A DNA stretch of 64,000 nucleotides from Bacteroidales bacterium (GTDB taxonomy: Bacteria > Bacteroidota > Bacteroidia > Bacteroidales > VadinHA17): assembly GCA_046329875.1 (NCBI GenBank), contig JAXLTT010000018.1, positions 933 through 64,932 on the forward strand. The letters are read 5' to 3'. Positions 48,153 through 64,000 of this stretch are shown here, in pieces. Numbering within the stretch: the stretch's first letter is position 1; each line of letters opens with the position of its first letter. The notes under the pieces are model-generated. The model was given only the letters and a program-made list of their open reading frames with translations, ran no database searches and had not been told where the DNA came from. Made by a program: the position numbers and the translations under genes.

Positions 48153-48270
48153 GCGATTGCTTCGTCTCCGCCATCTGGCGGATACTCGCAATGACAATAA
48201 CTAAAGTATCTGGGTTGTACTGGTCATTGCGATCCCGACATCGTCGGGAGAAGCAATCGCTAAAAACTAT
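48153..48270. repeat. inverted pair of REP-like units
   Basis: GCGATTGCTTC-hairpin-TCGCAATGAC (48153-48195) and GTCATTGCGA-hairpin-GAAGCAATCGC (48233-48270). The inner hairpins differ: TCCGCCatctGGCGGA versus TCCCGACatcGTCGGGA. Confidence 0.8.
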
Positions 48271-49961: not shown

Positions 49962-50441
49962 ATGGACCTGAGGAATCTCTCAACAGCCCTGTTTGTAAAA
50001 GACATAGAGGCTTCCAAAAGCTTTTACTCCGGTATCCTCGGATTGAAGATAACCCTCGATTTTGGCAAAAACGTGATCTACTCCGGGGGGCTCACCACCT
50101 GGGAGATCCGGGAGAAGCATATTATCCCTTCAAAGCTTGGGAGGGAGAATATCTCTGATACAGGGACCAACCGTTTCGAGATCTACTTCGAAACTGAAAA
50201 TCTTGATGAGGATTTTGAGAACCTTAAGAAGAATGGGGTTAAGTTTTTACACGGGCTTCACGAAGAGCCATGGGGGCAGAGGACAATAAGGTTCTTCGAC
50301 CCTGATAATCATCTTATAGAGATTGGTGAATCGATGAAAATATTTGTCGGAAGGTTCTATAACGAAGGGTTGTCAGTTGATGAAATAGAAAAGCGCACCT
50401 CCGTACCACGCAATGAAATCATAAGATTACTGGAGCTATAA
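49962..50441 (+). CDS. VOC (glyoxalase/bleomycin-resistance fold) family protein
   Basis: 159 aa; FYSGILGLK... and PWGQRTIRFFDPDNHLIEIGE are typical of the VOC fold. Confidence 0.7.
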   Translation: MDLRNLSTALFVKDIEASKSFYSGILGLKITLDFGKNVIYSGGLTTWEIREKHIIPSKLGRENISDTGTNRFEIYFETENLDEDFENLKKNGVKFLHGLHEEPWGQRTIRFFDPDNHLIEIGESMKIFVGRFYNEGLSVDEIEKRTSVPRNEIIRLLEL

Positions 50442-50465
50442 AATAAAAAGAGCGAGTTCCTCGCA

Positions 50466-50503
<38 letters not shown>

Positions 50504-50514
50504 TTTTTAGTCTT

Positions 50515-50565
50515 CCCTGTCCGCCCCCTGGCGAAAGCTTATTGATTATACCGGCCGTGTCAGGG
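50515..50565 (-). repeat. attC-like site a (terminal, degenerate, about 51 bp)
   Basis: CCCTGTC...CCGGCCGTGTCAGGG with internal CGCCccctGGCG hairpin. Confidence 0.5.
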
Positions 50566-50585
50566 GCATTAAGATTTTTTATTAG

Positions 50586-50780
50586 TTAAGAATCCAATTC
50601 CTTAATCAATGCTTTGATCTCCTCGTATGATTCTTTTACTTTCTGTGGAAGGGAGTAGTTTACAAGATTTGATTTAAGACTTGAACCGTTTTTGGATGGT
50701 TCAATCCATGCAATGTGCATTACATTAAAAAAGATTTTTTCACCATCAGTATTTGTCAGTTCAATGAAGAGGTTTTTCAT
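50586..50780 (-). CDS. cassette ORFan, 64 aa
   Basis: MKNLFIELTNTDGEKIFFNV...; ATG at 50780 preferred. Only a vague resemblance to small FlbD-like proteins. Confidence 0.45.
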   Translation of the reverse strand: MKNLFIELTNTDGEKIFFNVMHIAWIEPSKNGSSLKSNLVNYSLPQKVKESYEEIKALIKELDS

Positions 50781-50831
50781 ATGTTGTCTGTTTTTCAGGT
50801 TACAGGAACTTATTTTTCGCAGCACTTATTG

Positions 50832-50942
50832 CCCCTCACAGCACTACGGGTGCGAGTGGCAAACAAGAGGGCCGATCCGCAAGTAGAAGGACAGGTACAC
50901 CCATGGCTGAAGCTTTTTAAACATACCAACCGTGTCAGCCGG
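50832..50942 (-). repeat. attC-like site b (about 111 bp)
   Basis: Left CCCCTCAC, right ACCAACCGTGTCAGCCGG. Confidence 0.6.
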
Positions 50943-50966
50943 AGAATTTAAACAGGTTCAGATTTA

Positions 50967-51347
50967 TCATTTTGCCCTGATATAAAGGCTTGTATATCCA
51001 TCGTTTGGTACGATGGTCAGGGAGTCGCCACTTTGGTATATTCCAACATAGGCATATTTTACACCTGGAAATAAAGAATCAAAATCTAACTCCAGGAAAT
51101 TCTCATTTTGTGCGATAATCCTGATCTTCCCTTTTTTGTCGCTGTTATATTGAAATAACCCATATTTTATAAACTTAATTGTATGATAATTGCTAGTGTC
51201 AAATCCAGTATGAGTTACCGTGTAAACATAATTCCAGGTTCCATAAATGTTTTGATACTGCTCTGTAAAGATCTCGTCCTTGTAGCCTTTTTCACAACCA
51301 CTTATGAAAATTGCCAGTAAAAAACCAATTATTATTCTTGCTTTCAT
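50967..51347 (-). CDS. cassette lipoprotein ORFan, 126 aa
   Basis: MKARIIIGFLLAIFISGC lipobox. Confidence 0.6.
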   Translation of the reverse strand: MKARIIIGFLLAIFISGCEKGYKDEIFTEQYQNIYGTWNYVYTVTHTGFDTSNYHTIKFIKYGLFQYNSDKKGKIRIIAQNENFLELDFDSLFPGVKYAYVGIYQSGDSLTIVPNDGYTSLYIRAK

Positions 51348-51442
51348 ATGATTGAACTGACAGTTATACAAGTTACAGAGATTTTGGCTATTTCTAAAAA
51401 AAATCAATTGACCAGATTGCTATTGTTTCGTGAGGAATACTA

Positions 51443-51636
51443 CGACTAACGACGCGGCGAGTGTGCGCCAGGGCACAAGGCGAAAGTTTAAAGAGGGCCG
51501 AGCGTAAAGAAATTGCCTTAATGGCAATTTTAGCGAGGAGCCAGCTTGCAGGGATGTAGTATGTGATCCGTCCACTGGCGGAACCAGTTCGCACGCTGGC
51601 GGAAACAACTTACCCATATTGTCCGTGTTAGCCATA
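51443..51636 (-). repeat. attC-like site c (about 194 bp)
   Basis: Left CGACTAACGACGCGGC, right TATTGTCCGTGTTAGCCATA. Confidence 0.7.
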
Positions 51637-51657
51637 GGTTGGATTCGATATCCTTTT

Positions 51658-52554
51658 TTAATAAAGAGATCCCTTTTCTTGTTTCTTAATCTCCCTGGAA
51701 GTCATCTCTTTTTGCATAATGCTTTTCAAATATACTACCTTTGTTTTTCTAATCTCGCTTGCAGGCAAAAGGCTTCCATCCTGGCCTGAGTATTTAATTT
51801 GTAGGCTTTCCGCTCTCCCATTTTCTTTAGGTGCAACAACGTATAGTGTCAATGTTTCAGCAGCACTAATTATACCAATTGGTTCACCGGGATAAACTAC
51901 CTGTCCAAGTTTAAGAAATGTGACTTCAGGATTTAATCCCAGATAGATCGCAATAGTTCCGTCATTTTGCAAAATTTCAAGACTTGAAGACTTAATAAAT
52001 CTTTCAACTTCTGTTTTATTGTCTTGTAGTGCAATCACTGTCCCTTTCCGTATAGCGTATACGGTATCATTTATGGACATTTTGAATTTGTTGAGATTAT
52101 AAACGGTAGCCTCTCCTAGTTTTTCTTCCTTAAAACTTACAATTTTCCCTTCACCTATTGGGATGAAATAAGGAAATTCTAAATCGGCCTTATCCGCGGG
52201 CAATAGTTTAAAACTGATACCGTAACTGTAATTAATTGATTTAGATTTGTCTTGTACATCAAAGACACAAATACGATTTCTACCATGATAGACCTTTGTA
52301 TGATACTCAAAGATGTTGGGAGAGAGATTAAGAAGAGCACTAAAATGAATTGTGAAATCATACGTTAGGTAAGATTTATTTATAGCATCAAAAGTGACTC
52401 TAGAACTTGATTTCTCTACATCCATAGAGATGGGGGAATTAATTCTACCTCCCAGGGTCATTTCTTCAACTTTTGAATATTGCCCAATAAGCAATTGGTG
52501 AGAAATTATTAGAATTAGTAAAGTAGAAGCCGTTGGTAAATGTATTTTTTTCAT
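51658..52554 (-). CDS. cassette secreted protein with degenerate LytM/M23-like C-terminal domain
   Basis: Signal peptide MKKIHLPTASTLLILI. The GTVIAL...LEILQNDGTIAIYLGL...LKLGQVVYPGEPIGII pattern resembles M23 but lacks the His ligands. Confidence 0.5.
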   Translation of the reverse strand: MKKIHLPTASTLLILIISHQLLIGQYSKVEEMTLGGRINSPISMDVEKSSSRVTFDAINKSYLTYDFTIHFSALLNLSPNIFEYHTKVYHGRNRICVFDVQDKSKSINYSYGISFKLLPADKADLEFPYFIPIGEGKIVSFKEEKLGEATVYNLNKFKMSINDTVYAIRKGTVIALQDNKTEVERFIKSSSLEILQNDGTIAIYLGLNPEVTFLKLGQVVYPGEPIGIISAAETLTLYVVAPKENGRAESLQIKYSGQDGSLLPASEIRKTKVVYLKSIMQKEMTSREIKKQEKGSLY

Positions 52555-52578
52555 GTTTGTCATTATTTCGATTAAACT

Positions 52579-52755
52579 TATGGCTAGCGGCCTGGCGGGG
52601 TGCGTTTCACGCACAAGGAAAAAGTTAAAAGAGGGCCGCGCGTAAAGAAATTGCCTTAATGGCAATTTTAGCGAGGAGCCAGCTTGCAGGGGTTGTAGTA
52701 TGTGATCCGCCCACTGGCGGAGCCTACTAAACATACCGACCGTGTTACAGGCATT
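52579..52755 (-). repeat. attC-like site d (about 177 bp)
   Basis: Left TATGGCTAGCGGCCTGGC, right ACATACCGACCGTGTTACAGGC. Confidence 0.7.
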
Positions 52756-52769
52756 TATGTTAAACTTAA

Positions 52770-53384
52770 TTATGAAAGAGATTTTAATATTAAAGAGATG
52801 GTCAAAATTAAAAACATAATAGCTGCAACAAACCTATTAATCCTAATAGCCTCCTGAATTCGTAATTTACTTTGAGCTGAGAGTTCATCAATTAGTCTTA
52901 GCTTTTGATCGTTCAATCCTCTTCTTTCAAACTTAGTTAGAAGCTCTGTTTTTTTGTCTTCAAGGTTTTTGAATTTTTGAAATAGTTTTTTGTAGATATA
53001 GTTATCGAGTAACATTATAAAGACTACAATTGCAATACTCGCAATCCAAAAAATTGGCGGAAGGTCATTGAAATTGATGTTTTGAAGTTTCAATAACACA
53101 ACTATAAAGGTTATTAAGAGGGAAATAACTATTAAAGAAGTTTTCAAATTGAAATAGGGCCTTTTAGAGAGTTCAATACAGAGATTATCTAATTCCTCTT
53201 CAATATTTTCTAGTTTAAATGAATCCTTTAATGATTCAACATCAGTTAAGTTAAAGTGACGGTTCTCTAGTTCTAATCTGGCAAATGGAATAACTTCATC
53301 AGGGAGAAAAGAATTTCCAGAATAGATATCGTAAAGTTCCTTTGAGGTTTTTTCTTTTAATATTTCTGTCCAATTGTATTGCAT
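52770..53384 (-). CDS. cassette membrane ORFan, 204 aa (3 TM helices)
   Basis: Hydrophobic helices at about aa 83-105, 118-138 and 182-202. Confidence 0.6.
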   Translation of the reverse strand: MQYNWTEILKEKTSKELYDIYSGNSFLPDEVIPFARLELENRHFNLTDVESLKDSFKLENIEEELDNLCIELSKRPYFNLKTSLIVISLLITFIVVLLKLQNINFNDLPPIFWIASIAIVVFIMLLDNYIYKKLFQKFKNLEDKKTELLTKFERRGLNDQKLRLIDELSAQSKLRIQEAIRINRFVAAIMFLILTISLILKSLS

Positions 53385-53405
53385 TCGATTAGAAATTTCT
53401 GATTA

Positions 53406-53537
53406 ATTGCCTATAACGGCCCGGCTGGGTGTGTGTAGGGCAAAAGGCGAAAGTTTAAAGGCGAAAGTAAAGAAAACTTTATCCCCCAGTCCGCCTGCTG
53501 GCGGAGATTATTAATTATACCGTCCGTGTTAGGTAAT
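53406..53537 (-). repeat. attC-like site e (about 132 bp)
   Basis: Left ATTGCCTATAACGGCCCGGC, right ATACCGTCCGTGTTAGGTAAT. Confidence 0.75.
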
Positions 53538-53545
53538 GTGATTTG

Positions 53546-53917
53546 TTAATTTATCCTCATGGACTTATTTTTAAAGTCCTCTCTTGTACAATCTATAATT
53601 GCTCCGCTAAAAGTCTTTCTGTAGATATGGAATGAGTTTTTAATTTTAAATACTGAATCTCCAATCTCTATTCCGTTTTTCAGATCACTATAATAAACGC
53701 TTAAGTCTAGCCTTTCTCCATTACTAAATGTTATAATAGTACTTCCATGATTATCTGAATGTATTCTTTTCTCTATTACTTTACCTGAAAAGGATGACTT
53801 GTAGAATTCTAAGTTCGCTTTATGGTTGATATAAAAAGCATACCCAAAGAAACATACTACACTATTAATTATTAATGCAATACAACCATATTTGCGGTAT
53901 TTATAAGGTAATCCCAT
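53546..53917 (-). CDS. cassette ORFan with N-terminal TM anchor, 123 aa
   Basis: One TM helix (GCIALIINSVVCFFGYAFYI). Confidence 0.55.
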   Translation of the reverse strand: MGLPYKYRKYGCIALIINSVVCFFGYAFYINHKANLEFYKSSFSGKVIEKRIHSDNHGSTIITFSNGERLDLSVYYSDLKNGIEIGDSVFKIKNSFHIYRKTFSGAIIDCTREDFKNKSMRIN

Positions 53918-53954
53918 TTGTAATTTATCTCAGAACCTAAAGATTCTTTCGCAT

Positions 53955-54094
53955 ATTACCTAACGGTTGACGACACAGGGACGTGCGTGGATTTAGGGGC
54001 GAAAACCTATCAGATTACAATGTGTTTGTTTACGAGCTGCAACCGCCCAAAACCCGCCCTGTAACCCGCATGCCCGGGGTTGTTTGTTGCAGGG
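53955..54094 (-). repeat. attC-like site f (about 140 bp)
   Basis: Left ATTACCTAACGGTTG, right CCCGGGGTTGTTTGTTGCAGGG. Confidence 0.7.
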
Positions 54095-54200
54095 GGTAAT
54101 TTATTCTGCATCAATATTGAACTCAATATCAACAATTTCATAGATTACTTAATAGTCCGGTTAGCAACTCAAATGATATAATTTCCTGTTTTCATATAAT

Positions 54201-54234
54201 AAGAAGAGACGACTATAAGAGGTCGTCACTTCTT
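54201..54234 (-). terminator. hairpin downstream of cassette ORF 54254-55003
   Basis: AAGAAGAGACGAC-tataagag-GTCGTCACTTCTT; only a modest T-run follows on the sense strand. Confidence 0.4.
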
Positions 54235-54253
54235 ATAATTGAATAAACTCTTA

Positions 54254-55003
54254 TTATTTTTTATTATAATCTTCTACCATCCTGGTGAAAGCCTCTAAAG
54301 TATCCATGTGGAAGCTGGATTCAAAGACAGGTCCTTTTACAAAAAGATTTCTAAAACCATATTTGTTTTTAGCGTAATCGGTTAAAACGGTTTTATTATC
54401 GCCGAAAAGATTCTTTAAATTTATGGTAGACAAATTTTTCGCCTCCTCTCCTGCTTTTTGGGCAAGAATCTCAAAGTTATTTTCCTGCCATTTGACATAA
54501 TCAGCATCACTAACCTTCGTCCGGTCAGGTAAGTAGGAAGTAACGATACCCTGGGTATGGTGGTATTTTTTTAAAACGGTTATCTTTCCTTCCGTGGCAA
54601 CTTCCAGCATCATCTTTCTAGGTATCTGGTCTTGTTTTCTTTTCGCAAAAAGATTGACATATGTCTCCTGTTTGAATTTTTTACCATTTTCAAGTGTAAA
54701 ACTTTGCAGGTCGTCGGCATCATAAACCACAACCGAGCCTTTGTCTATTTCTTTCCCTGCTTTGTAGGCTTCATACGCTTTCTCGTCAATCAGGTAAACC
54801 TTTTTTTGAAAATCCTGGGGGTTCATCATATCAAAATATATGTATCCATTAACAGTATCCCCGTTTTTCATCGTTACCGTACCTTTTTCATATGTCCAAA
54901 CCGAACTGGGAGTTCTTAACTGAGCTTTAGCATGGTTACATGTCAGGCTAAAAAGCATTACCAGCATGAGTGTAATCGTTGAAATTCTGTTTGTTGCTTT
55001 CAT
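54254..55003 (-). CDS. cassette secreted ORFan, 249 aa
   Basis: Signal peptide ..LTCNHAKAQ. Confidence 0.6.
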   Translation of the reverse strand: MKATNRISTITLMLVMLFSLTCNHAKAQLRTPSSVWTYEKGTVTMKNGDTVNGYIYFDMMNPQDFQKKVYLIDEKAYEAYKAGKEIDKGSVVVYDADDLQSFTLENGKKFKQETYVNLFAKRKQDQIPRKMMLEVATEGKITVLKKYHHTQGIVTSYLPDRTKVSDADYVKWQENNFEILAQKAGEEAKNLSTINLKNLFGDNKTVLTDYAKNKYGFRNLFVKGPVFESSFHMDTLEAFTRMVEDYNKK

Positions 55004-55226
55004 AATTTTGATTTTATTAAAATTAGGGTTACTCTCTTAAAAAAATCTTTGCACCGAAGATTTGTAATTGTAGTTTGCAATAAATTTGGGTTGCTTTGCA
55101 TCTTTCAAGGTTTATTAGTAATATACAAAAAAGCATCTGATTTTCGTAATCAATCCTTATCTTTTTTATCCTTGAATGATTCTTTGTGAAAAAACAATTA
55201 TTGTACTTTCACTCTGTGGTTTTATG

Positions 55227-55418
55227 CCCTGCAACGGCCAGGCGGGGGTGCGCGGAGCGCACAAGGCGAAAGTTTAAAGGAGAAAGGCGAAAGTCAAAAG
55301 TAAAAAGTAAGAAAAGCAATTGGGCTGATAAATCACTTGCAGTTTCTGTCAAGGTGGCCTTTAGGTCCCCGGCAAAAAGTGTGACAAACAAATGAACTTT
55401 ATTGTCCATGTTAGCATT
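55227..55418 (-). repeat. attC-like site g (about 192 bp)
   Basis: Left CCCTGCAACGGCCAGGC, right TTATTGTCCATGTTAGCATT. Confidence 0.7.
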
Positions 55419-55426
55419 CGTTTATT

Positions 55427-56338
55427 TTAATGTAATGGTTCGATGGAATCTATAATTACTTTCCCAATGTTACCATTCACAAAATAATTTATTTGAATTT
55501 TTATTTTGTTTTGTTCTAATCTTGGATCATAATTTATCCAATCTAGTGGCATTTTGTAAATAATATCCTGCATTGTCTTGGCGAACGGAATACTACCATT
55601 GTAACTTATTCTCTGAATGTTTATTGAATCGTGGAAAGTTGTTAACTCAAATATTGCATTTGAATTCTGAACAAAAAATGGTTGGCTTTTAACTCTCTTT
55701 TCAAAAACTGATTTATAAAAGAGGGACTTAAACCTTTCTAAGCTTCCAAGTTGATCATAACTTTTTAAACCATTGTTATATATCATATTGTTATTTGTGA
55801 AATCATATTTACAGGCTATGGAGCCATTTTTAAAATAGTAATTCCATATACCTACTTTTTTGTTGTCAATATATTCTCCAACTGCTGCAGTCCGAATTCC
55901 ATTTGTGTCAAGAGAAATCTTAATTGGGTCATTTCCTTTCGGCAGGGTTGCTGTTGTATGTTTTTTACCTCCGAAAAGATTTACAATATTATCATTTTCT
56001 GAATCTGGAATGTAAAAATATACCCATTTACCAGTCTTCTTGTCATTTTTAAACTCTCCTATTGAAAGCAAAGGATTTGCGACATTCTCTGGATCACAGA
56101 ATATCCATCCTCCAGTTTTCTTATTATTATCATAGTTTCCGTAAGCTTCAATGGATTTATCGTACATATTCATAGATTCAAAATACTTCAGGTACTGCCC
56201 CTGTCTAACATTCTTATCACTCTTTAGTACATAATAAACCTCTCCAAATTGGTCATTCGACCTGATGATTTTTTTCAGTTCTTGAGCTTTCAAACTAGTC
56301 GAAATAATTAAGAAACAAAGTAGGATTTTGATTTTCAT
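55427..56338 (-). CDS. cassette MORN-repeat-variant (YwqK-like) secreted protein
   Basis: Signal peptide; repeated KKTGGW / KKTGKWVYFY / KKVGIWNYYFKNG units. Confidence 0.7.
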   Translation of the reverse strand: MKIKILLCFLIISTSLKAQELKKIIRSNDQFGEVYYVLKSDKNVRQGQYLKYFESMNMYDKSIEAYGNYDNNKKTGGWIFCDPENVANPLLSIGEFKNDKKTGKWVYFYIPDSENDNIVNLFGGKKHTTATLPKGNDPIKISLDTNGIRTAAVGEYIDNKKVGIWNYYFKNGSIACKYDFTNNNMIYNNGLKSYDQLGSLERFKSLFYKSVFEKRVKSQPFFVQNSNAIFELTTFHDSINIQRISYNGSIPFAKTMQDIIYKMPLDWINYDPRLEQNKIKIQINYFVNGNIGKVIIDSIEPLH

Positions 56339-56374
56339 ATTTTAAAAAGATTATGGCTTATACTAATATCTATT

Positions 56375-56794
56375 AATGCTAAAGGTCCGGCGAGGGCTGA
56401 GCGTTAATAAACAGCCCTGGCGGGCTGTTTTAGCGAAGAGCCGGTCTGCAGGGGCGGAGTAAGCGTAACCCGACGAAGCATCCGTGCACAATCCTGATAC
56501 CCCACGGTAGCGGGGCCACAAAACTGTCCCGGTGCGAGGAGGGTTTGGCATGTGTTTTTGCAGTCATGTTGTGAAGTGTCTTGCCTCTACGTGTATCGCG
56601 GTACAATGAGTCTTGGAGTTAGAAATTTGTCCTGGTGTAGATACTTAATTGAAATTACTTGAGGGGCGCCCTATGTCGGAGCGAAGCGGAGATTGGGGCG
56701 CGGGGCTCTGTCACGGTGTAGTATTAGTCATAGCAGCAGGAGCAAAAGCAAAAACCATGACAAGCTTATTAAACATACCGACCGTGTTAGCGGG
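56375..56794 (-). repeat. attC-like site h (about 420 bp, carries the module shared with site j)
   Basis: Left AATGCTAAAGGTCCGGCGAGGGCTGAGCG, right AACATACCGACCGTGTTAGCGGG. Confidence 0.65.
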
Positions 56795-56816
56795 TGACCC
56801 TGTTTAAGTTATAAGT

Positions 56817-57839
56817 TTAATGTTCGTTTTCAGTATTTGAGTCAGGATACTCATCATCAAATATGAATTTTACATTCTTAAATCTAACTATCAATTCTTT
56901 CTGCTCAGTAAGTTTTAACTTGTTATTGCCCATGATTATCTTGAGATTTCTAATTGAATCTAATGAATCTGGTAGTCTAATACCCACATTAGCTGTTAAA
57001 TTCAATTCTTGAAGATTTCTCAACTTAGAGAATGATTCAGGAATGTCCTTAATGTAATTTACTTCCAGATTTAGGATTTTAAGATTTTCTAGCGCTGAAA
57101 TCTCATCTGGGAGACTATGCAAGTTATTGGTGTTTAATTCGAGTTCCTCTAGTTTTGAAAGGTTGGAGATATAAGGTGGAATTTCGTTAATACGATTATA
57201 GGAGAGTTTCAGTTTCTTTAGTGAGGTCAAGGAAAAGATTTCTTTTTGTATCTCAGTCAGAGCATTTCTACCCAAGTCTAGGTATTCGAGATTTAGCAGA
57301 TTAGTAATTTCTGAGGGTAATTGCTTTGCTAAAGTTGTATCGGATTTACCTCTAGTATCCAATCCGCCAAACAATACCAGCATCGTCAGATTCTTTAATT
57401 TACCAATTGAGGAGGGAAGAAATATGTTCATTGTGCAACTGTTGCTATTATCGACAATCAGTTTCTCTAAATATCTGAGGGAGCCAATTTCAGGTGGAAG
57501 ATCTATTAGGTTTTCAAGACAGTGAATCTCAAGGATTGTCAAGTTCCTGAGTGTGCTAATTTCTGAGGGCAAATGTTTCAGGTTATAATACTTTGAAGTT
57601 TCAGTGCTAGGATTCCACTTTGGTGTAATAATAAGATGATAGATTCTGTCTGACAATAATAATGCTGAGTCTAGATCAGTGATTGTTAAAGTATCATCCC
57701 CAATCTCTCTGTTAATTGAGGGCTCAATTGCAGGAATAGAATCTATATTTATTACTCCTGACTTTGTTGATGGGGCCCTTGGTGTTTGACTACATCCGAT
57801 TATTACAACTAATGCAAAGGAATAAACGGCTGATTTCAT
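56817..57839 (-). CDS. cassette leucine-rich-repeat lipoprotein
   Basis: Lipobox VIIGCSQ; at least 9 LxxLxLxxNxL repeats (LKKLKLSYNRINEIP, LEELELNTNNLHSLP...). Confidence 0.85.
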   Translation of the reverse strand: MKSAVYSFALVVIIGCSQTPRAPSTKSGVINIDSIPAIEPSINREIGDDTLTITDLDSALLLSDRIYHLIITPKWNPSTETSKYYNLKHLPSEISTLRNLTILEIHCLENLIDLPPEIGSLRYLEKLIVDNSNSCTMNIFLPSSIGKLKNLTMLVLFGGLDTRGKSDTTLAKQLPSEITNLLNLEYLDLGRNALTEIQKEIFSLTSLKKLKLSYNRINEIPPYISNLSKLEELELNTNNLHSLPDEISALENLKILNLEVNYIKDIPESFSKLRNLQELNLTANVGIRLPDSLDSIRNLKIIMGNNKLKLTEQKELIVRFKNVKFIFDDEYPDSNTENEH

Positions 57840-57859
57840 AGTAGTTAGTTATGATTAAC

Positions 57860-58201
57860 CGCTAACGGCCCGGCGAGGGCTGAGCGTAAATAAATTGCCT
57901 GAATGGCAATTTTAGCGAGGAGCCAGCTTGCAGGGGTGGCAATATAAGGTAAAAGTTAAAAGTAAAAAGTCAAAAGTAAAAAGGCAAAAGTAAAAAGTAA
58001 GAAAAGCATTCGGGCTGCTAAACCACTTGGGGTATTTGCTCGGCTGGCGTTTACGTCACCGGGGAAAAACCATGACAACTGCGTAAGCCGAAGCTTTCTT
58101 GACCACCAAAGCTTTCTTGTCCACCGAAGCTTTAGCGGAGGTGGAAGCGTAGTCGGGGGCGAAGGCTTAGCTTATTAAACATACCGACCGTGTTATAGGC
58201 T
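57860..58201 (-). repeat. attC-like site i (about 342 bp)
   Basis: Left CCGCTAACGGCCCGGCGAGGGCTGAGCG, right AACATACCGACCGTGTTATAGGC. Contains an AAAAGT-rich tract. Confidence 0.7.
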
Positions 58202-58223
58202 GCTCTTTTATTTCATACCATTT

Positions 58224-59072
58224 TTACCAAAGTTTCCGTTTGCTCTTTATTGTCAATTCTTTAATCGTTTTCTTGGTCGTTGAACGTGGTTTTGTTTCTT
58301 CTGATTTTAACTGCTGGTCAACAATTTGTATTATCCAAATATCAAAGTCAGCAACGAAGCCATACATTGTATTTTTTATATCGAAATCAATTTGAACGTC
58401 AATTGTGTCAATCTTTTCAATTAAATGCGCTGTCAGTTTATGTCTGATTGGAAGATACCATTGAACCACTGGTTTATTGTCCCAACTTGCATAATTCAAA
58501 ACAAGAATTTCTGCATTTTCAAAGTCCGTTTTGTTCGGTTTGTTTGATTGGTTTATTCGAGTTGTTGCGATTAAATTATGTCCATATTCGTCATTTTTAA
58601 TTGCTTCTAAAACAACAGCTCCGCCGTAATTTCCGTTTTCAAGTTTAAAAGCCAAACAATCACCTTTTTCAAAAACTGGTTGTCTAATTAGTTTCTTTTT
58701 CCTTGATTTTACTTTAGGTATTTCTTTTTGTAAGTCAGCAAGAAAATTGTCAAGAGCTGTTTTACGTTTTTGGATGGTCTTTTCGTCAGCGTCAAGTTGT
58801 CTCCAGACTTCAAGGTCTGCGCCTGTTTCAATAACTTTTTTAACTCGGTCTAAAATATCTTTGTCCAATTGTTTACATTCCCATTGTGCTTTTGCCAAAG
58901 CAAACCAAAAGTTATTACAGTCTTCCGTATCATTAATTGTTTCTTGATTGTCTGCGATTAACTTTTTTGAAATTTCTCCAACATCAAGTCCACCATTATA
59001 CAAGTCAAAAAATATCCTGTAAGTATCAGAGTAAGTGTCGTTAGATGATATTGCTGTTCCCCAAGTTCCCAT
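58224..59072 (-). CDS. cassette DUF4259 domain protein
   Basis: MGTWGTAISSNDTYSDTY... start is characteristic of DUF4259. Confidence 0.65.
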   Translation of the reverse strand: MGTWGTAISSNDTYSDTYRIFFDLYNGGLDVGEISKKLIADNQETINDTEDCNNFWFALAKAQWECKQLDKDILDRVKKVIETGADLEVWRQLDADEKTIQKRKTALDNFLADLQKEIPKVKSRKKKLIRQPVFEKGDCLAFKLENGNYGGAVVLEAIKNDEYGHNLIATTRINQSNKPNKTDFENAEILVLNYASWDNKPVVQWYLPIRHKLTAHLIEKIDTIDVQIDFDIKNTMYGFVADFDIWIIQIVDQQLKSEETKPRSTTKKTIKELTIKSKRKLW

Positions 59073-59103
59073 ATATTTTGTATTGTCCTGTTTTTTTAGA
59101 GTT

Positions 59104-59660
59104 GCCCATAACGGCCCGGCGAGGGCTGAGCGTTAATAAACAGCCCTGGCGGGCTGTTTTAGCGAAGAGCCGGTCTGCAGGGGCGTAGTAAGCGTAACCC
59201 GACGCAAGCACCGGGCAGATCCTGGTTCTTCAGGCAGAAATTGTCCCTGTGCAAGCTTGCCTGCCGTCAGGCAGGGAGGGTTTGGCGTGCGTTTTTGCAG
59301 TCATGTTGTGAAGTGTCTTGCCTCTACGTGTATCGCGGTACAATGTTTTTTCGGAGCAGTGAACTTATCCCCATTTACAAAACTTGTTTCAGGCACTGGC
59401 GCAGTGTCGCGATGGAATGAATATTGGAGCCAGCAATTAGTCAAGGAGTAGGATCTTTATAGTGTGTAGCTGCGGGAGTCCGGGTGCAGTATTAATAAGG
59501 GAACATTAAAGCCAACCGTTATTTTGGAAAAGAAAAAAGGCTAAAAGAAAAAAGAAGGTTCGGGCTGCTAAACCGCGTGTGGTTTTTGTACGGCTGGCGT
59601 TTACGTCACCGGGCAAAAACCGTGACAAACAACTTACCTATATTGTCCGTGTTAGCAACA
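59104..59660 (-). repeat. attC-like site j (about 557 bp)
   Basis: Left GCCCATAACGGCCCGGCGAGGGCTGAGCG, right CTATATTGTCCGTGTTAGCAACA. Confidence 0.65.
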
Positions 59661-59680
59661 GGGCATTTTATTAGATTCTA

Positions 59681-60805
59681 TTATTGAAACAAATGAATGT
59701 AATTATCAAAAATGTAAATTCGCCCTCTCTGTCCACCCGTAATCTCCTTAAGAATTCCAAGTTTTTCAAGATCAACAATTAATTTATAGGCTGACGGTAA
59801 TGATATTTTTGCAATTTCACCAACCTTTTCAGCATTAACTGATGGTCTTTGATAAAGATAGTTTGTAACCTTTTGAGCATTAGCAGCCCTACTGCCAAGA
59901 TGCTGAATTTTAAGGTCAATTTGTTTTTGTAATTGCAGAATACTATCAAAAGTGGAAATTCCTTTTTTAGAAGTCTCTATGATTCCAACTAGGAAGAATT
60001 TGAACCATTGACTGATGTCATTTTTAATACGTACATTCATTAAATTCTCGTAATAGAGACGTCTGTGTGTTTCCAAGAAATCTGATAAATATAATATGGG
60101 TTTTTTAAGGATCCCTTTATTAACTAAGTATAAAGTGATCATTAGTCTTCCTACTCTCCCGTTACCGTCTAAAAATGGGTGAATAGTTTCAAAATGATAA
60201 TGAATTAGAGCTATTTTAAGAAGCTCTGGAAAGAAAATTTCCTCATTATGAACAAATTTTTCTAGATCCCCCATTAGTTCAGGTACAGACGTATGAACTG
60301 GTGGAATAAATGTTGCATCATTTATTGTTGCTCCCCCAATCCAGTTCTGACTTCTCCGAAATTCTCCAGGCTGTCTCTTTTCTCCTCTTACTCCTTGCAA
60401 TAGAATCTTGTGTGTATCCCTAATTAATCTTGATGAAAAAGGAAGTTCCTCTAAAGCTTTAATTGCAGATTCCATCGCTTGAATATAGTTCTGAACTTCT
60501 TCCCAATCATCCCTTTTGTCTAATGGAACATCTTCTTTCTCAAGAAGAGCCTCCTCAATATTGGTTTGTGTTCCTTCAATTTTACTACTTTGAGTTGCTT
60601 CTTTTAAAACATGCATACTTATAAACAAATCAATATTTGGGATATAGTTGGAATACATATCCAATCTACCAAGTTCTCGGTCTGCTTTGCTTAATAGTTG
60701 TAAAACCTCCATGTTGTCAATAGTCCATTGCCTATTAATGAGAGATGGTTGAAAGCTCTTATATGAGCCTTGATTTATATAAGATCCAGCATTGAAACTT
60801 TGCAT
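59681..60805 (-). CDS. cassette Fic family protein (AMPylase-type)
   Basis: HPFLDGNGRVGR Fic motif, Fic N-terminal region, C-terminal wHTH-like tail. ATG at 60805 was preferred because TTG at 60826 lies inside the -7 box. Confidence 0.88.
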   Translation of the reverse strand: MQSFNAGSYINQGSYKSFQPSLINRQWTIDNMEVLQLLSKADRELGRLDMYSNYIPNIDLFISMHVLKEATQSSKIEGTQTNIEEALLEKEDVPLDKRDDWEEVQNYIQAMESAIKALEELPFSSRLIRDTHKILLQGVRGEKRQPGEFRRSQNWIGGATINDATFIPPVHTSVPELMGDLEKFVHNEEIFFPELLKIALIHYHFETIHPFLDGNGRVGRLMITLYLVNKGILKKPILYLSDFLETHRRLYYENLMNVRIKNDISQWFKFFLVGIIETSKKGISTFDSILQLQKQIDLKIQHLGSRAANAQKVTNYLYQRPSVNAEKVGEIAKISLPSAYKLIVDLEKLGILKEITGGQRGRIYIFDNYIHLFQ

Positions 60806-60823
60806 GAGCCTGTATATTTTAAA

Positions 60824-60831
60824 CAAATATA
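60824..60831 (-). promoter_or_regulatory. candidate -7 box TATATTTG internal to the Fic cassette
   Basis: TAnnTTTG on the sense strand, about 19 nt upstream of ATG 60805. Confidence 0.4.
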
Positions 60832-60944
60832 TTCCTTATTTAAGAAAAAGCAAAATATATTAAATAAACAACGCGACTATTTAAGCTATTTAAATATTTC
60901 ATAAATAATTATTTGTCTATTTAAGGTAGAATCTAGAATCTCCT

Positions 60945-61280
60945 TGTTGCTAACGGCCCGGCAATATGGGGAGGTTGTGTTGGTTTGAGAATGGAAGCTG
61001 TGACCAGAAAGCTTTCTTTGAGGCAGGGTCCTGGCACACAGCTGGAATGAACAAACCATGGCGCACTTTTTGCGAGTCCGGGTACAAATTGGCTGAGTAA
61101 ACGCGTGCCGAGTTTCAAGGTTGAAAATTGACCACATGCTGTCGGTCATGCAGGTAATAGATCAAAGAAATAAGGAGCGTTCGGGCTGATAAATCACTTG
61201 CAGTTTTTGTTAAGGTGGCCTTTAGGTCCCCGGCAAAAAGTGTGACAAACAACTTACCCATATTGTCCGTGTTAGCAGAA
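60945..61280 (-). repeat. attC-like site k (about 336 bp)
   Basis: Left TGTTGCTAACGGCCCGGCAATATGGG, right CCCATATTGTCCGTGTTAGCAGAA. The right core abuts the stop codon at 61282. Confidence 0.75.
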
Positions 61281-61281
61281 G

Positions 61282-62148
61282 TTATTTTTTCAATTCATAT
61301 AATCCCTTTTTATCATTCCATACTAAATTATTTTGGTTTTCATTCCAGAAATTCAACCACCAATCAGCATTTTTAGTTCCATTAAATTTCAGATCCCCGA
61401 ATAATATTTGCAAGTATGCATAGGTATATGTGTCTGGATTACAGAAATTTGCTGGGGAATCCTTGTCTTTTGGCATTTCTTCTAGGTTATATACTTTCTT
61501 TAAACAGTTTTTTGTAATTCGTTCTTTAATAGGATTGTCTTGCAGAGAAATAATTAAAGCATGGATTGCACTTAAACTAGTGATTTCTGGAATTTTAGAA
61601 TTTTTAAATTCGATTGGTTGAAATTCTTCGACTGATTTGTTTGACAAATAGTCCACCCATTTGTTCTTTAGTACTTCAAGCTCCAATTCATTTGATTGAA
61701 TGGTGACATAACCAAAATTTTTGTTTGTTAAGTTCTGAAGAATTTGATTTGCTCTACCTCCAACTTTGAATAAATCGTTGTCAATTACCAAACCTTTTCC
61801 CTCAAATATTATATCACCACTTACTATTCTATCCCATATAATTAATCTACTAGTCCCCTCTAGCTTTGTCTCTTTTAGGTTAATTATCTGATTTGTAAGT
61901 TCTTTTAAATAGGTACTATCTTTTGAATAGTTATTTATTGAAGCATTCATGGTTAAAAAAACTGCACTCCAACTTTTGTCATTCAAGTTTTTGGATAAAA
62001 GTTCTGAGGGTGTAAGTTTTTGGGCTGCGTCATACATTTCTTTCGTGTAATTCTCTATATTTTGTTGACTCCAAGAAGTCAATAAACGTTGAGAATATGA
62101 ACAAAAGCAAATAGATGTAGTTAAAATAAAAAAGATTAATTTTTTCAT
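61282..62148 (-). CDS. cassette secreted ORFan, 288 aa
   Basis: MKKLIFFILTTSICFCSYSQ signal peptide. The 62277 extension runs through attC l. Confidence 0.6.
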   Translation of the reverse strand: MKKLIFFILTTSICFCSYSQRLLTSWSQQNIENYTKEMYDAAQKLTPSELLSKNLNDKSWSAVFLTMNASINNYSKDSTYLKELTNQIINLKETKLEGTSRLIIWDRIVSGDIIFEGKGLVIDNDLFKVGGRANQILQNLTNKNFGYVTIQSNELELEVLKNKWVDYLSNKSVEEFQPIEFKNSKIPEITSLSAIHALIISLQDNPIKERITKNCLKKVYNLEEMPKDKDSPANFCNPDTYTYAYLQILFGDLKFNGTKNADWWLNFWNENQNNLVWNDKKGLYELKK

Positions 62149-62163
62149 AGACTTAAATTTAAT

Positions 62164-62488
62164 TTCTGCTAACGGCCCGACAATAAAGTAAGTAAGTGTT
62201 GGCTGACGAAGGCATCCGGCAACGCGTCCAGGTGCTTTAGCCGGGAATCTATCCCGGTGACAAGGAAGCCACGGCACGCTTTTTGCAAATCCAGGCGCAA
62301 CTAAATTGAACAGGTTGAGTGTCGCGATACAAACTTTATAAGTGATTAGTTATTTCTCACGATACAGAAAACTGATAAGTGGGCGATGGCGCGGTCCGGG
62401 TTTATCACCAGTTACGAATCCTGATAGACGACTGAGAGTCACGCAAAAAGCGTGACGAGCTTATTTACTTTATTGTCCGTGTTGTGGG
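62164..62488 (-). repeat. attC-like site l (about 325 bp)
   Basis: Left TTCTGCTAACGGCCCGACAATAAAGTAAGTAAG, right CTTATTTACTTTATTGTCCGTGTTGTGGG. Confidence 0.75.
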
Positions 62489-62498
62489 TAGTGCTTTT

Positions 62499-63572
62499 TT
62501 ATAATTCCATATTCATTGCTTTTCTTACTTCTGTTAAAGTTTCAATAGCAACTTCTCTGGCTTGTTTAATACCGTTTCTTAAAATCTCTTTAACAAATGT
62601 TTTATCTTCTTCAAGTTGTTTCCTTCTTATCCTAATTTCCTTGAAATGGGAATTCAAGGCTTCAGAAGTGATTTGTTTTAATTTTCCAGCACCTTGATTT
62701 CCAATTTCTTTCGCAATATTTTCAGGAGATTGATTCAGGCAAAGGCTACAAAGTCTTAATAAATTAGCAACTTCTGGTCTATTAATTGGGTCATATTCGA
62801 TTAATCGTTCAGAATCTGTTTTTGCGGATTTAATTAATTTATTAGTCTCATCTTCGGTAGCCTTTATCATAATGCTATTATTTCGACTTTTGCTCATTTT
62901 CTGAGTGCCATCCAATCCTAAAATCACAGGGACTTCACTAAGTAATCCAATAGGTTCTCTAAAAACATTTGATTTGAATTTTTTATTAAATCGTTTTGCA
63001 ATTGTCCTTGTCATTTCTATATGAGGTAATTGGTCTTTACCAACAGGAACCACATTACTTTTACAAAACAATATATCAGCGGCTTGATGAACAGGATAAG
63101 TGTACATTCCTGCATTAATAATGTTTTGACATGACGCTGCTATTTCTTCTTTTATGGTTGGGTTTCTGCTAAGTTCTGCATTAGAAACCAAAGATAAAAA
63201 CGGAATCGTTAATTGATTCAGTTCAGGAATGTGACTATGAGGAAAAATAAATGTTTTGTTTTTTGAAGGGTCTAACCCACATGCTAAATAATCAATCGTA
63301 AGTTCAACCACATACTTTGAAATATCTGCAAAAACATCTCTATCAGTTAATACTTGATAATCCGCAATCAAGATATACGTTTCAACGCCAAGTTCTTGCA
63401 ACCGAACTCGATTCTGTAAAGAACCAAAATAATGTCCAATATGTAAATTCCCTGTTGGTCTATCTCCTGTAAGTACTCTGTGTTTATGTGGGTTTATTTT
63501 TAAATCTTTTTCTAACTCATCGCTTCTTTTAATTGAAATTTCATACGATGAATAATTAACGTCATCCTTCAT
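62499..63572 (-). CDS. trpS: cassette-borne tryptophan--tRNA ligase
   Basis: HIGH motif (TGNLHIGHY) and KMSKS motif; GDRPTG-type N-terminus; 357 aa. Confidence 0.88.
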   Translation of the reverse strand: MKDDVNYSSYEISIKRSDELEKDLKINPHKHRVLTGDRPTGNLHIGHYFGSLQNRVRLQELGVETYILIADYQVLTDRDVFADISKYVVELTIDYLACGLDPSKNKTFIFPHSHIPELNQLTIPFLSLVSNAELSRNPTIKEEIAASCQNIINAGMYTYPVHQAADILFCKSNVVPVGKDQLPHIEMTRTIAKRFNKKFKSNVFREPIGLLSEVPVILGLDGTQKMSKSRNNSIMIKATEDETNKLIKSAKTDSERLIEYDPINRPEVANLLRLCSLCLNQSPENIAKEIGNQGAGKLKQITSEALNSHFKEIRIRRKQLEEDKTFVKEILRNGIKQAREVAIETLTEVRKAMNMEL

Positions 63573-63593
63573 TATATCTGTTTTAATTTTTCA

Positions 63594-63601
63594 CAAAAGT
63601 A
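63594..63601 (-). promoter_or_regulatory. candidate -7 box TACTTTTG inside the trpS cassette
   Basis: TAnnTTTG on the sense strand, 22 nt upstream of ATG 63572. Confidence 0.4.
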
Positions 63602-63700
63602 AAATTTTAATTTGCACGAGCAGCAGATTCTTGCATTCTGTATAACGGCAAAATCGTTATCTTGATAATTTAACGGAAATCTCTCAGTAACAGAGGATTA

Positions 63701-64000
63701 CCCACAACGGCTCGGCAATAAAGTAAGTAAGTGTTGGCTGACGCAGGCATCCGGCAACGCGTCCAGGTACCCGCCGGTAGGCGGGCCGGGAAACTATTCT
63801 GTATAACGGCAAAATCGTTATCTTGATAATTTAACGGAAATCTCTCAGTAACAGAGGATTACCCACAACGGCCCCGCGGTATGTGCAGTTGACGGCAGCA
63901 TCGGGGTGGCGTGTTTTTTGCCAGGGCGTATAGAAAGTAGAAATGTTTATCGTTTTGAAAATCTTAATTGTTTTGCAAAAAACATGACACCATTTGGGCT
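63701..64000 (-). repeat. attC-like site(s) m (left half duplicated; right end beyond window)
   Basis: CCCACAACGGC occurs at 63701 and 63862. The segment 63635-63711 is repeated at 63796-63872. Confidence 0.6.

Follow-up and report, generated by a model that had tools for sequence, protein, structure and literature searches.

In integrons, each promoterless ORF carries a single attC site at its 3′ end; the Vibrio cholerae repeats of about 120-133 nt, from a sedentary chromosomal integron, are among the longer ones. These sites have inverted AAC/GTT core sites with crossover at a triplet, so that the outer bases of a site belong to the neighbouring cassette. Their L boxes covary, and a small spacer stays unpaired, as does one base in the 3′ arm of the strand that folds; the bottom strand is the stabler and more G-rich one, and sites are homogeneous within a lineage (PMC5027507). 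Of the tyrosine recombinases, those known for acting on folded single strands are Xer enzymes and IntI (PMC5027507). Bacteroidetes are almost integron-free in IntegronFinder surveys (PMC9024848). Here, we analysed a window of 64,000 nucleotides from an uncultured member of the Bacteroidales, in which GC-rich spacers of about 320-560 nt are probably oversized folded-DNA recombination sites of an integron-like array. All of the attC properties listed above recur in them. However, these giant sites measure about 310-600 nt as against 57-141 nt for attC, they hold a conserved three-way junction and oriented repeats of about 35 nt between the L boxes instead of a variable loop, and their associated recombinase does not have the extra domain of IntI. 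No description of such sites was found in Rfam or in the literature searched, and the family is apparently undescribed so far.

Organisation of the cassette array

The chromosomal cassette array covers 50.5-64 kb of the window, with its genes on the minus strand. No recombinase gene was found by searching the window, and the array continues past its right end. The features are as follows (stem 2 is the TTTTTGC/GCAAAAA stem).

50516-54097, plus strand: distal part of the array with sites a-f, short or degenerate, outside the interval treated in the earlier note
about 50516-50567, plus: site a, from sequence reading
about 50830-50942, plus: site b, from sequence reading
about 51444-51636, plus: site c, contains the M1 repeat
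about 52581-52753, plus: site d, contains M1
about 53410-53537, plus: site e, from sequence reading
about 53953-54097, plus: site f, from sequence reading
55227-55415, plus: site g, hybrid or degenerate; AAC end 55233-55235
55427-63572, minus: cassette ORFs, one per cassette, with start codons shortly after the AAC/GTT end of the preceding site
55427-56338, minus: cassette ORF
56378-56791, plus: site h, of family type with M1 (56386-56458) in the L'' arm; stem 2 56547-56561 with 56748-56761, one T bulged; L' 56762-56781; GTT end 56782-56791
56817-57839, minus: cassette ORF, LRR
57860-58197, plus: site i, mosaic; AAC end, M1 57868-57940, (AAAAGT)n tract, M3 block
58224-59072, minus: cassette ORF
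59106-59656, plus: site j, mosaic, about 550 nt; M1 59115-59187
59681-60826, minus: cassette ORF, Fic
60949-61276, plus: site k, intact giant site; R box GCTAAC 60949-60954, L'' 60960-60978, side hairpin about 60981-61058, stem-2 left half 61060-61073, interior 61074-61232, stem-2 right half 61233-61246, L' 61247-61266, CCGTGTTAGC 61267-61276
61282-62148, minus: cassette ORF, probable ATG at 62148 from sequence reading
62168-62486, plus: site l, intact giant site; AAC 62171-62173, L'' 62179-62197, side hairpin about 62198-62272, stem-2 left half 62273-62286, interior 62287-62442, stem-2 right half 62443-62456, L' 62457-62476, CCGTGTTG 62477-62484
62499-63572, minus: cassette ORF, class I Trp/Tyr-type tRNA synthetase
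63573-64000, plus: proximal window end, including the leader of the tRNA-synthetase cassette
63706-63768, plus: truncated l-like half site, 95% identical to 62171-62233
63796-63877, plus: 82-nt duplicate of the leader (63635-63716), creating an ORF-less pseudo-cassette
63908-63921 with 63975-63988, plus: stem 2 at the start of a further site, at the proximal end

Every intergenic spacer carries a single AAC end and a single GTT end, and the sequences CCGTGTT and AACGGC are confined to its outer ends. The 7 nt outside the AAC of a site are complementary to the 7 nt outside the GTT of the neighbouring site across the cassette, with 6-7 matches out of 7 in 118 of 139 pairs; the mean is 5.99 matches, compared with 3.05 inside a site and 2.76 in random pairs. 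This rule holds for all window cassettes checked (a/b, c/d, e/f and f/g by reading; d/e with 6/7). Complementarity across rather than within sites is an integron signature, so together with the single AAC and GTT ends it excludes the hidden R''/R' junctions that the earlier note had allowed for. Crossover at the AAC/GTT triplets of the outer ends makes each long spacer a single site, and the lengths first reported are roughly correct: the AAC-to-GTT distance is 328 nt in i, 541 in j, 319 in k and 310 in l.

Sites a-g are partly decayed, and short sites of about 110-145 nt (b, e and f) share the window with giant ones. Site g comprises a AAGGCGAAAGTTTAAAG block, an AAAAGT tract, an M3 block, the right half of stem 2 (55372-55385), an L' box and CCATGTTAGC; the left partner of its stem 2 is absent, and its L'' and L' are unpaired. 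The part of h that follows M1 looks like the side hairpins of the family in a by-eye comparison with the family alignment. Site i further has a degenerate stem-2 right half GGGAAAAACCATGAC, an extra insert of about 88 nt and an h-type L' with GTT end, and j shares its left 250 nt with h at 83% identity (M1, side hairpin, left half of stem 2 at 59284-59298) and continues with extra repeat units, an M3 block, the right half of stem 2 (59613-59626) and an L' of k type with GTT end.

M1 is a hairpin repeat of about 65 nt that occurs across Bacteroidota, also in copies outside arrays, and its insertion points within the L'' arm differ. Sites h, i, j, c and d contain it, along with local mosaic blocks that have no counterpart in 187 metagenomic sites, and breakpoints of identity fall at R boxes in 5 of 7 cases as against a background of 2.4%. 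These five sites are of the same kind as the others, secondarily inflated by M1 and scrambled by inter-site recombination. Like the elements that insert at attC (IS1111-attC insertion sequences and group IIC-attC introns), M1 and an IS91-family element sit inside or beside the sites, but M1 is only about 65 nt long, has no ORF and is also found far from arrays. The embedding of extra elements, one of two readings offered earlier, thus applies to h, i, j, c and d, which carry the foreign M1, and not to k and l, which do not have it.

Architecture and folding strand of the site family

Sites k and l, which align end to end with 58% identity and have their stems in common, belong to a large and abundant environmental family with a median site length of about 390 nt. 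Both fold better than shuffled sequences (z = -5.1 for k and -3.4 for l), and the two ends of k pair with each other in its minimum free energy fold. In the family layout, an attC-like R/L core at the site ends, formed by the AAC/GTT R box and a covarying L stem of 17-22 bp, with a small spacer and a T of the 3′ arm left unpaired and with a conserved G.A mismatch and G.T wobble, closes a three-way junction with a side hairpin of 72-84 nt and the 14-bp GGCGnnnTTTTTGC/GCAAAAAnnnTGAC stem, beyond which lies the repeat interior.

The ten strings quoted in the earlier note all stand exactly where it had placed them, and the pairings that it read from them are real: the L boxes are complementary at 9/9 positions in k and 16/17 in l, and stem 2 at 13/14 in l and 12/14 in k, while that of h pairs with one T bulged and not otherwise. 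The recurring blocks AAGGCGAAAGTTTAAAG and TTCGGGCTG(C/A)TAAA have three copies each, all in the array; TCCGCC-N4-GGCGGA has two exact array copies (d and e) and is not confined to the array, as a third exact match lies outside it at 48167. The covariation proposed for the stems proved far above chance once 187 related metagenome sites were included. In 27 related sites, 98.3% of the stem cells pair, where shuffles give 84.7% (0/500) and slid controls about 40%, and compensatory double changes occur in 20 of 41 pairs, both counts coming from alignments of sites pre-selected for pairing. A selection-free test, which avoids this bias but covers only stem 2 and the L box, gave perfect complementarity at three variable stem-2 positions in 104 of 118 sites, where permuted partners give 24, with nine distinct Watson-Crick triplets.

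The folding strand is the plus strand of the window, antisense to the ORFs, that is, the attC 'bottom' strand. G.T outnumbers A.C in the stems by 125 to 4 (71 to 4 when two dubious pairs are dropped), and G exceeds C on this strand in 91/91 sites. The strand-specific folding suggested earlier as a check found the plus strand more stable in 90/91 sites, by 10.6 kcal/mol on average and by 8-23 kcal/mol in window sites h-l. The same kind of strand bias is known for attC bottom strands (PMC5027507).

The interior is a degenerate tandem array of 3-8 direct repeat units of about 35 nt, each terminating in the oriented motif tGTCnnGGTrCAa, of which there are 281 copies on the plus strand and none on the minus strand (1.4 expected), with spacing peaks at 32-40, 67-76 and 102-108 nt. 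A covarying helix or other structure was looked for in the interior and none was resolved. The scaffold of side hairpin, stem 2 and direct repeats is kept in hundreds of environmental cassettes, and the interior is conserved in sequence, size class and oriented motif over 91 unique sites from many samples, as would not be expected of a neutral spacer. The earlier idea of a giant variable terminal structure is thus right for k and l as single sites with a very large interior, but this interior is a conserved scaffold and not variable.

The recombinase next to related arrays

Which enzyme could act on such sites? In related contigs, a XerA-like tyrosine recombinase of 388 residues precedes the arrays. 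It adjoins giant sites in L210 and L238, and among six further homologues, picked by the length of their contigs (L242-L248), such sites lie downstream in L242, L243 and L247, making five giant-site contigs with the gene upstream. L245 and L246, of a related lineage, have the recombinase with sites of about 135 nt; L244 ends after a stem-2-like match, and no site was found in L248 with the site patterns used. As these shorter sites and the short b, e and f indicate, the enzyme family does not require the giant interior. Apart from one cassette of 1121 nt, L245 and L246 have 99.93% identity. The insertion point of this cassette is precisely ...ATAACAA|GTTG..., 108 nt past the recombinase stop codon; attI lies about 90-110 nt beyond this codon in related contigs. 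The 388-residue protein would thus, from these contigs, be the cognate enzyme of the window array.

It shares the simple tyrosine recombinase make-up of IntI1, VchIntIA, XerA and XerC/D, namely a SAM-like and a catalytic domain, and is about 34% identical to both IntI1 and XerA. Among solved structures, archaeal XerA (4A8E and 5HXY) matches it best and aligns contiguously, while VchIntIA (2A3V) matches only in two stretches. Unlike IntI, it has no insertion at the IntI-specific position, where alignment with IntI1 leaves gaps of 31 and 10 residues, and it scores below the NCBIfam IntI cut-offs. Unlike both IntI and Xer, it has an extra beta-rich N-terminal domain of about 70 residues, with no Pfam family and only faint matches to HARP and DUF5710. 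From alignments and a model of moderate confidence (pLDDT 73.6), we regard the IntI-specific insertion as probably absent; the N-terminal domain is putatively new. The gene is also co-oriented with the cassettes and followed by attI at its 3′ end, unlike those of IntI1/VchIntIA and Xer. The 'inverted' integrons of Treponema and Chlorobi have a similar gene arrangement. Judged by its sequence, the recombinase beside this array family is not a classical integron integrase. The name attC given earlier fits how the sites work, but it is doubtful that they belong with classical integrons, since the enzyme encoded beside such arrays does not have the IntI-specific domain.

Alternative readings and a possible role of the repeats

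An ordinary integron, with a classical IntI past the window and normal attC sites whose terminal structure has drifted large without function, would account for site ends that satisfy the attC criteria and for short and giant sites in one array, and longer, branched terminal structures are known in chromosomal integrons (PMC5027507); nevertheless, we consider it unlikely, given the interior conservation, the XerA-like gene upstream of both giant and 135-nt sites, the absence of any IntI-type gene with the extra domain adjoining the giant sites seen, and the scarcity of integrons in Bacteroidetes (PMC9024848). It is likewise improbable that the interiors are structured ncRNAs nested in normal attC sites, either antisense transcripts of the plus strand or 3′-UTR elements of cassette mRNAs, with covariation reflecting RNA function. 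Invariant G.U-type pairs on the plus strand, strong interior conservation and a motif that could serve an RNA-binding protein speak for it; but the covarying stems are the attC-type L/R stems and a contiguous one, the arrangement of DNA hairpin sites, the interior yielded no covarying helix, and Rfam gave no match to the sites, group II introns included, even at E up to 5. The G.T bias also assigns folding to the strand opposite the coding one, and a sense RNA would have A.C mismatches at invariant positions.

Composites of ordinary-length attC sites and ORF-less cassettes find some precedent in the pseudo-cassette and half site at 63573-64000, and a hairpin of about 55 nt closed by AAC...GTT can arise from M1 and the left end of h or j. 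This reading is very improbable, as the motifs at outer ends only and the flank complementarity join whole spacers, k and l fold end to end without M1, and the occurrence of M1 in many genomes outside arrays, at varied points, makes its R-box pairing incidental. The spacers are modular and mosaic and M1 truly is a repeat of REP- or MITE-like kind, but that all of them are such an intergenic family, or terminators accumulated between genes, can hardly be credited: this passive-repeat reading is already contradicted by the complementarity of unique flanks across cassettes and by the cassette-sized insertion at attI, and the breakpoints at R boxes also stand against it.

Our preferred reading is that of oversized folded-DNA recombination sites, with which the array would function like an integron, each cassette consisting of one promoterless minus-strand ORF and one recombination site. 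The oriented motif copies of about 12 nt, regularly spaced beside a core crossover site, and a recombinase with an extra N-terminal domain resemble lambda-like attP arm-type sites or iterons. However, covariation of the flanking stems across 150-330 nt speaks for folding of a single strand and against the duplex of attP, and the 35-nt period is not a whole number of helical turns. Our guess is that the interior repeats are putative binding sites, possibly for the N-terminal domain of the recombinase. Bound in this way, they would give the 300-nt loop its shape beforehand, which would allow the far-apart L and R halves to pair on single-stranded DNA; they would also mark the correct strand.

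The cassette array and the ends of its sites

Between about 50.47 kb and the right end of the window, where the array is still running, the ORFs are AT-rich, mutually unrelated and all on the minus strand, among them an LRR protein, a Fic protein, a class I Trp/Tyr-type tRNA synthetase and several unknowns, and the spacers between them are GC-rich. The housekeeping genes atpA, atpD and ettA lie upstream, and the array is therefore chromosomal; AtpD of the window is 86-89% identical to proteins recorded under "MAG: Bacteroidales bacterium". At the distal boundary of the array is a hexanucleotide microsatellite, (CTCACT)n at 50462-50505, between the last site, a 51-nt remnant, and the conserved chromosomal genes. 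The tRNA synthetase homologue (62499-63572, minus strand; PF00579, E = 2e-57) is carried as cassette cargo with a 140-nt leader, and the tRNA-synthetase cassette pair is present as an identical copy in two public sequencing runs (SRR26348422 and SRR34691363). No integrase-like or recombinase gene was found within the window, and the contigs that match its last gene are 1.5-1.8 kb long and identical to the window, none of them reaching beyond 64000. The spacers are referred to by letter:

Recombination-site spacers of the window (plus-strand positions)
50516-54097, sites a-f
55227-55415, site g
56378-56791, site h
57860-58197, site i
59106-59656, site j
60949-61276, site k (intact)
62168-62486, site l (intact)

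An earlier note on this DNA had described the spacers at 55227-62488 as exceptionally long attC-like sites, and had raised the alternative that hidden R''/R' junctions divide them into attC sites of ordinary length and ORF-less cassettes. On the plus strand, each spacer has exactly one left end (...YTAAC/GGCCCGGC, the slash marking the junction) and one right end (...CCGTGTTAG), and neither motif occurs inside the spacers. The junctions were examined in the window and in at least 120 metagenomic contigs by comparing the 7 nt outside AAC with the 7 nt outside GTT. Across a cassette, that is, between the AAC end of one site and the GTT end of the preceding one, 118 of 139 pairs are complementary at 6-7 of the 7 positions (mean 5.99), whereas the mean is 3.05 when the two ends belong to one site and 2.76 when pairs are drawn at random. 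The rule is obeyed by the cassettes from site a to site m, though by b/c only weakly; an example is the end of site k, GTTAGCAGAA, and the start of site l, TTCTGCTAAC. This is the classical signature of integron cassettes: the core ends are inverted AAC/GTT, the crossover is at the triplet, the outer bases come from the neighbouring cassette, and every ORF together with its site once existed in circular form, joined at the triplet. Hidden junctions, as well as passive repeats, are thereby ruled out.

Stems, folding strand and interior of a site family

Metagenome contigs were scanned with the right-hand pattern GCAAAAAnnnTGAC-N20-CCGTGTT, which matched at least 120 contigs with at least 187 sites (the window's four included), as many as six per contig and at cassette spacing. 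Among the matches listed, the upstream partner GGCGnnnTTTTTGC is found at one of several discrete distances, about 115, 153, 190, 228, 257 or 314 nt, a side hairpin of 72-84 nt stands between the L'' box and this partner, and the length of complete sites ranges from about 260 to 600 nt with a median of about 390 nt; sites k and l fall, by alignment, in the 153-nt class. The six sites at 55227-62488 measure 190-550 nt, and h-l 320-550 nt. Canonical attC sites are 57-141 bp long with a variable terminal structure (PMC5027507). The sites described here exceed this length and their interior sequence is conserved across cassettes, so that of the proposal of "attC sites with giant variable terminal structures" the size holds and the variability does not. 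The default attC size limit of IntegronFinder, 200 bp, would exclude these giant sites.

Do the stems covary, as the same note had proposed? RNAalifold on 27 sites, k and l included, predicted 41 pairs, located in the outer R/L stem, at the base of the side hairpin and in stem 2, the 14-bp stem built on TTTTTGC/GCAAAAA; 20 of the 41 show compensatory double changes. Stem cells pair in 98.3% of cases, compared with 84.7% in shuffles (reached in 0 of 500) and about 40% with slid partners, and double-change cells number 157 as against 49.5. Because these 27 aligned sites had been selected for pairing, the test was repeated with partners located by their conserved flanks alone. The three variable positions of stem 2 were then perfectly complementary in 104 of 118 sites, as against 24 with permuted partners, and took nine distinct Watson-Crick combinations. 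Likewise, L boxes matched their own partner (at least 13 of 19 positions) in 104 of 132 sites, as against 24% when permuted, with 53 distinct 20-mers among the L' boxes; in the alignment, compensatory changes are seen in 12 of 22 outer-stem pairs. The L''/L' boxes are thus conserved in structure rather than in sequence, as in attC, and the covarying stems are borne out by both the alignment and the flank-located test. In the window, L''/L' are unpaired in sites c, d and g-j, all of them hybrids or carriers of the repeat M1 described below. All ten sequence strings that had been quoted are present at their coordinates, and the L-box complementarity is 9/9 in k and 16/17 in l; stem 2 pairs at 13/14 positions in l and 12/14 in k, and in h only if one bulged T is allowed.

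The stems also indicate which strand folds. Their pairs on the plus strand include 125 G.T against 4 A.C, several G.T positions and one G.A mismatch being invariant. When both strands were folded with DNA parameters, as had been suggested, the plus strand was the stabler in 90 of 91 sites; the mean difference is 10.6 kcal/mol, and in sites h-l of the window it is 8-23 kcal/mol. G exceeds C on this strand in 91 of 91. The plus strand is antisense to the ORFs and is therefore equivalent to the bottom strand of attC. Its 3' arm bears one unpaired T, and there is a C/T bubble beside the R box; the extrahelical bases of model attC sites sit on the 3' arm as well (PMC5027507), although these number two or three, compared with the one clearly extrahelical base here. 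An unpaired spacer, an extrahelical base on one arm and a favoured bottom strand are thus all found.

Inside stem 2, and in the side hairpin past its base, neither RNAalifold nor our own column-pair scan detected robust covarying helices. The interior is instead built of degenerate repeats in tandem. The motif tGTCnnGGTrCAa, always in the same orientation, has 281 copies on the plus strand of 91 sites and none on the minus strand (1.4 expected), with spacing peaks at 32-40, 67-76 and 102-108 nt and positions about 0, 35, 70, 107, 142 and 180 nt past stem 2. Two types of repeat unit alternate, and the lengths of the interior fall into classes that differ by multiples of about 38 nt; Tandem Repeats Finder did not detect the units of about 35 nt. 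A group II intron or another Rfam RNA embedded in the sites would be expected to match a curated covariance model, and no such match was obtained, either for the window at gathering score or for the sites (50400-64000) at E values up to 5. Speculatively, the repeats are putative binding sites, perhaps for the N-terminal domain of a recombinase; a bound protein might then draw the 300-nt interior together and let the far-apart halves of the L and R stems anneal on single-stranded DNA. Integron sites that have to be extruded from duplex DNA are known to recombine less when their terminal structure is long (PMC5027507). Since short sites coexist (b, e and f in the window; L245, a related locus), the interior is not required; one lineage of cassettes has elaborated it.

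M1, mosaic sites and decay

The note had also allowed that additional structured elements are embedded in the sites, and this proved right for M1, which is inserted in h, i and j at varied points of the L'' arm. It is a hairpin repeat of about 65 nt, of the form GGGCYGAGCGTWAARAAA-hairpin-TTTTAGCGARGAGCC..GCAGGG, with a 6-bp covarying stem and a GGTG-type loop; 5 of 12 pairs show compensatory changes.

M1 copies in the window
51486-51558, in site c
52624-52696, in site d
56386-56458, in site h
57868-57940, in site i
59115-59187, in site j

Outside the window, M1 is found in the loci L008, L021, L030, L060, L068, L082, L101, L113, L115 and others. A scan of genome contigs with a 15-mer of M1 gave 119 loci, mostly chance matches, of which about 25 are true copies; the hosts are Algoriphagus, Cyclobacteriaceae, Flavobacterium, Rikenellaceae and further Bacteroidales genomes. 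Frequently it lies outside arrays, beside a tRNA-like sequence (L030), in tandem (L068) or behind ordinary genes. It is not in Rfam; it may be a mobile repeat of small size or an element resembling a bidirectional terminator. Its insertion point in the L'' arm differs among h, i, j and three loci outside the window (L101, L043 and L072), and as a result of the insertion h, i and j no longer fold end to end.

Among the matches listed, none of M1, the AAGGCGAAAGTTTAAAG block, the TTCGGGCTGMTAAA block, the block shared by h and j and the AAAAGT tract occurs in the 120 metagenomic contigs; they are local additions. Sites c, d and g-j are mosaics whose halves come from different site types. The blocks noted earlier as recurring in different combinations are confined to the array, with no significant copies elsewhere in the window, except for the TCCGCC-N4-GGCGGA hairpin, which is also found outside it at 48160-48260 together with neighbouring GC-rich palindromes. 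As the same small hairpin occurs there and in sites c, d and e (with a degenerate copy in a), it gives the impression of a short repeat in its own right.

The array shows partial decay. At its right end, 63635-63716 and 63796-63877 are an 82-nt duplication, 98% identical, of the leader of the tRNA-synthetase cassette, and the duplicated leader flanks a GC hairpin and a truncated copy of the left portion of site l (63706-63768), in an ORF-less pseudo-cassette within 63573-64000.

Recombinase and attI in related loci

A tblastn search with an IntI1 query detected tyrosine recombinases in six contigs, of which five bear sites. Two of the six, L183 and L186, encode recombinases of about 300 aa that were considered as candidate integrases and rejected, since they belong to IS91-family pairs.

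IS91-family pairs (Y2_Tnp/Zn_Tnp_IS91 transposase and tyrosine recombinase of about 300 aa)
L183, 4234-6353
L186, 387-2434
L247, 12289-14351
L247, 17511-19459

Such a pair immediately adjoins the GTT-side end of giant sites in L186 and in both L247 copies, and in L183 it lies about 4 kb from the nearest recognised site, with four ORFs between; the IS91-family element may target giant sites.

Two further contigs, L210 and L238, encode a family of 388-aa recombinases, with 46% core identity and an N-terminal domain common to both. Six homologues, picked solely for their long contigs, were examined. The recombinase gene is followed by co-oriented cassettes with giant sites in L242, L243 and L247, and by cassettes with sites of about 135 nt and the same design in L245 and L246; L244 ends past a stem-2-like match, and L248 has no site by the patterns used. 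The protein scores below the NCBIfam cut-offs for integron integrase (TIGR02249 and NF011946), and its alignment with IntI1 has gaps of 31 and 10 residues at the IntI1 extra domain. With archaeal XerA (4A8E) it aligns contiguously (E = 5e-40), and with VchIntIA (2A3V) in two stretches; in a fold search with the whole model, which the catalytic core dominates, XerA is nearest and IntI4 follows. The AF2 model (pLDDT 73.6) has an N-terminal beta-beta-alpha-beta-beta-alpha-beta domain (residues 1-70), a disordered linker and the usual two domains. No Pfam family was found for the N-terminal domain, with faint hints of HARP (best E 0.13 in real members) and DUF5710. As judged from these related contigs, the window itself having no recombinase, the integron-specific additional domain of IntI is absent. 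We infer that the 388-aa recombinase is the enzyme of the window's array.

For the window's array, an attI of the form CTTTGGTAWACATATWAACA/GTT would be expected after such a recombinase gene. In the related loci, the first cassette starts 88 nt (L243) or 108 nt (L245) past the recombinase stop codon, at a junction conserved in both (...CATATWAACA/GTT). L245 and L246, from different samples, are 99.93% identical except for one cassette of 1121 nt (L245 11275 vs L246 11276-12395), which in L246 lies exactly at ATAACAA/GTTG, 108 nt past the stop codon, and contains an epimerase-like gene and an attC-like site of about 135 nt. This difference is a natural attI insertion polymorphism; an attI that lies beside the recombinase gene and receives new cassettes is thus present, in related loci only. 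Cassettes past the recombinase in L245 (12455-16606), L248 (11868-19133) and L243 (20388-20905) carry defence-like genes (HsdM-type methylase, SMODS, OLD-like TOPRIM ATPase, N6/N4 methylase and helicase) and a ParE toxin pair, a cargo similar to that of chromosomal integrons.

The analysis thus shows discrete cassettes joined at AAC/GTT, an attC-like core, a bottom-strand bias, a conserved three-way junction with a repeat array and, in a relative, the insertion of a cassette at attI. The logic is that of integrons, but the recombinase architecture is different and the sites are of another order in size and organisation. There is about an even chance that this is an unrecognised, environmentally abundant integron-like class of Bacteroidales, with a XerA-like enzyme in which a new N-terminal domain stands in place of the IntI extra domain, and with one major cassette lineage whose folded-DNA sites are multi-domain, 300-600 nt long and furnished with an internal iteron-like array read by the enzyme or a partner. 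No description of giant attC-like sites or of the 388-aa recombinase context was found in the full-text literature searched, most subscription journals lying outside its scope. By definition an integron has IntI and short attC hairpins, and surveys that apply this definition have found almost none in Bacteroidota. IntegronFinder surveys of Bacteroidetes report only In0 elements and a single complete integron (PMC9024848). Systems of the present kind would be invisible to such surveys, and this would account for the seeming scarcity of integrons in the phylum.

Provided that the arrays are functional, the capture of cassettes by folded single strands does not depend on the IntI-specific domain, and such recombination sites can be five times larger than thought and hold an array of repeats inside. 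Mobile cassettes, including Fic, LRR, toxin-antitoxin and defence-like genes, would then form a large pool that has been overlooked in Bacteroidales of sediments, wetlands and digesters, and the giant sites would offer a natural test case for how distant halves of a hairpin meet on single-stranded DNA.
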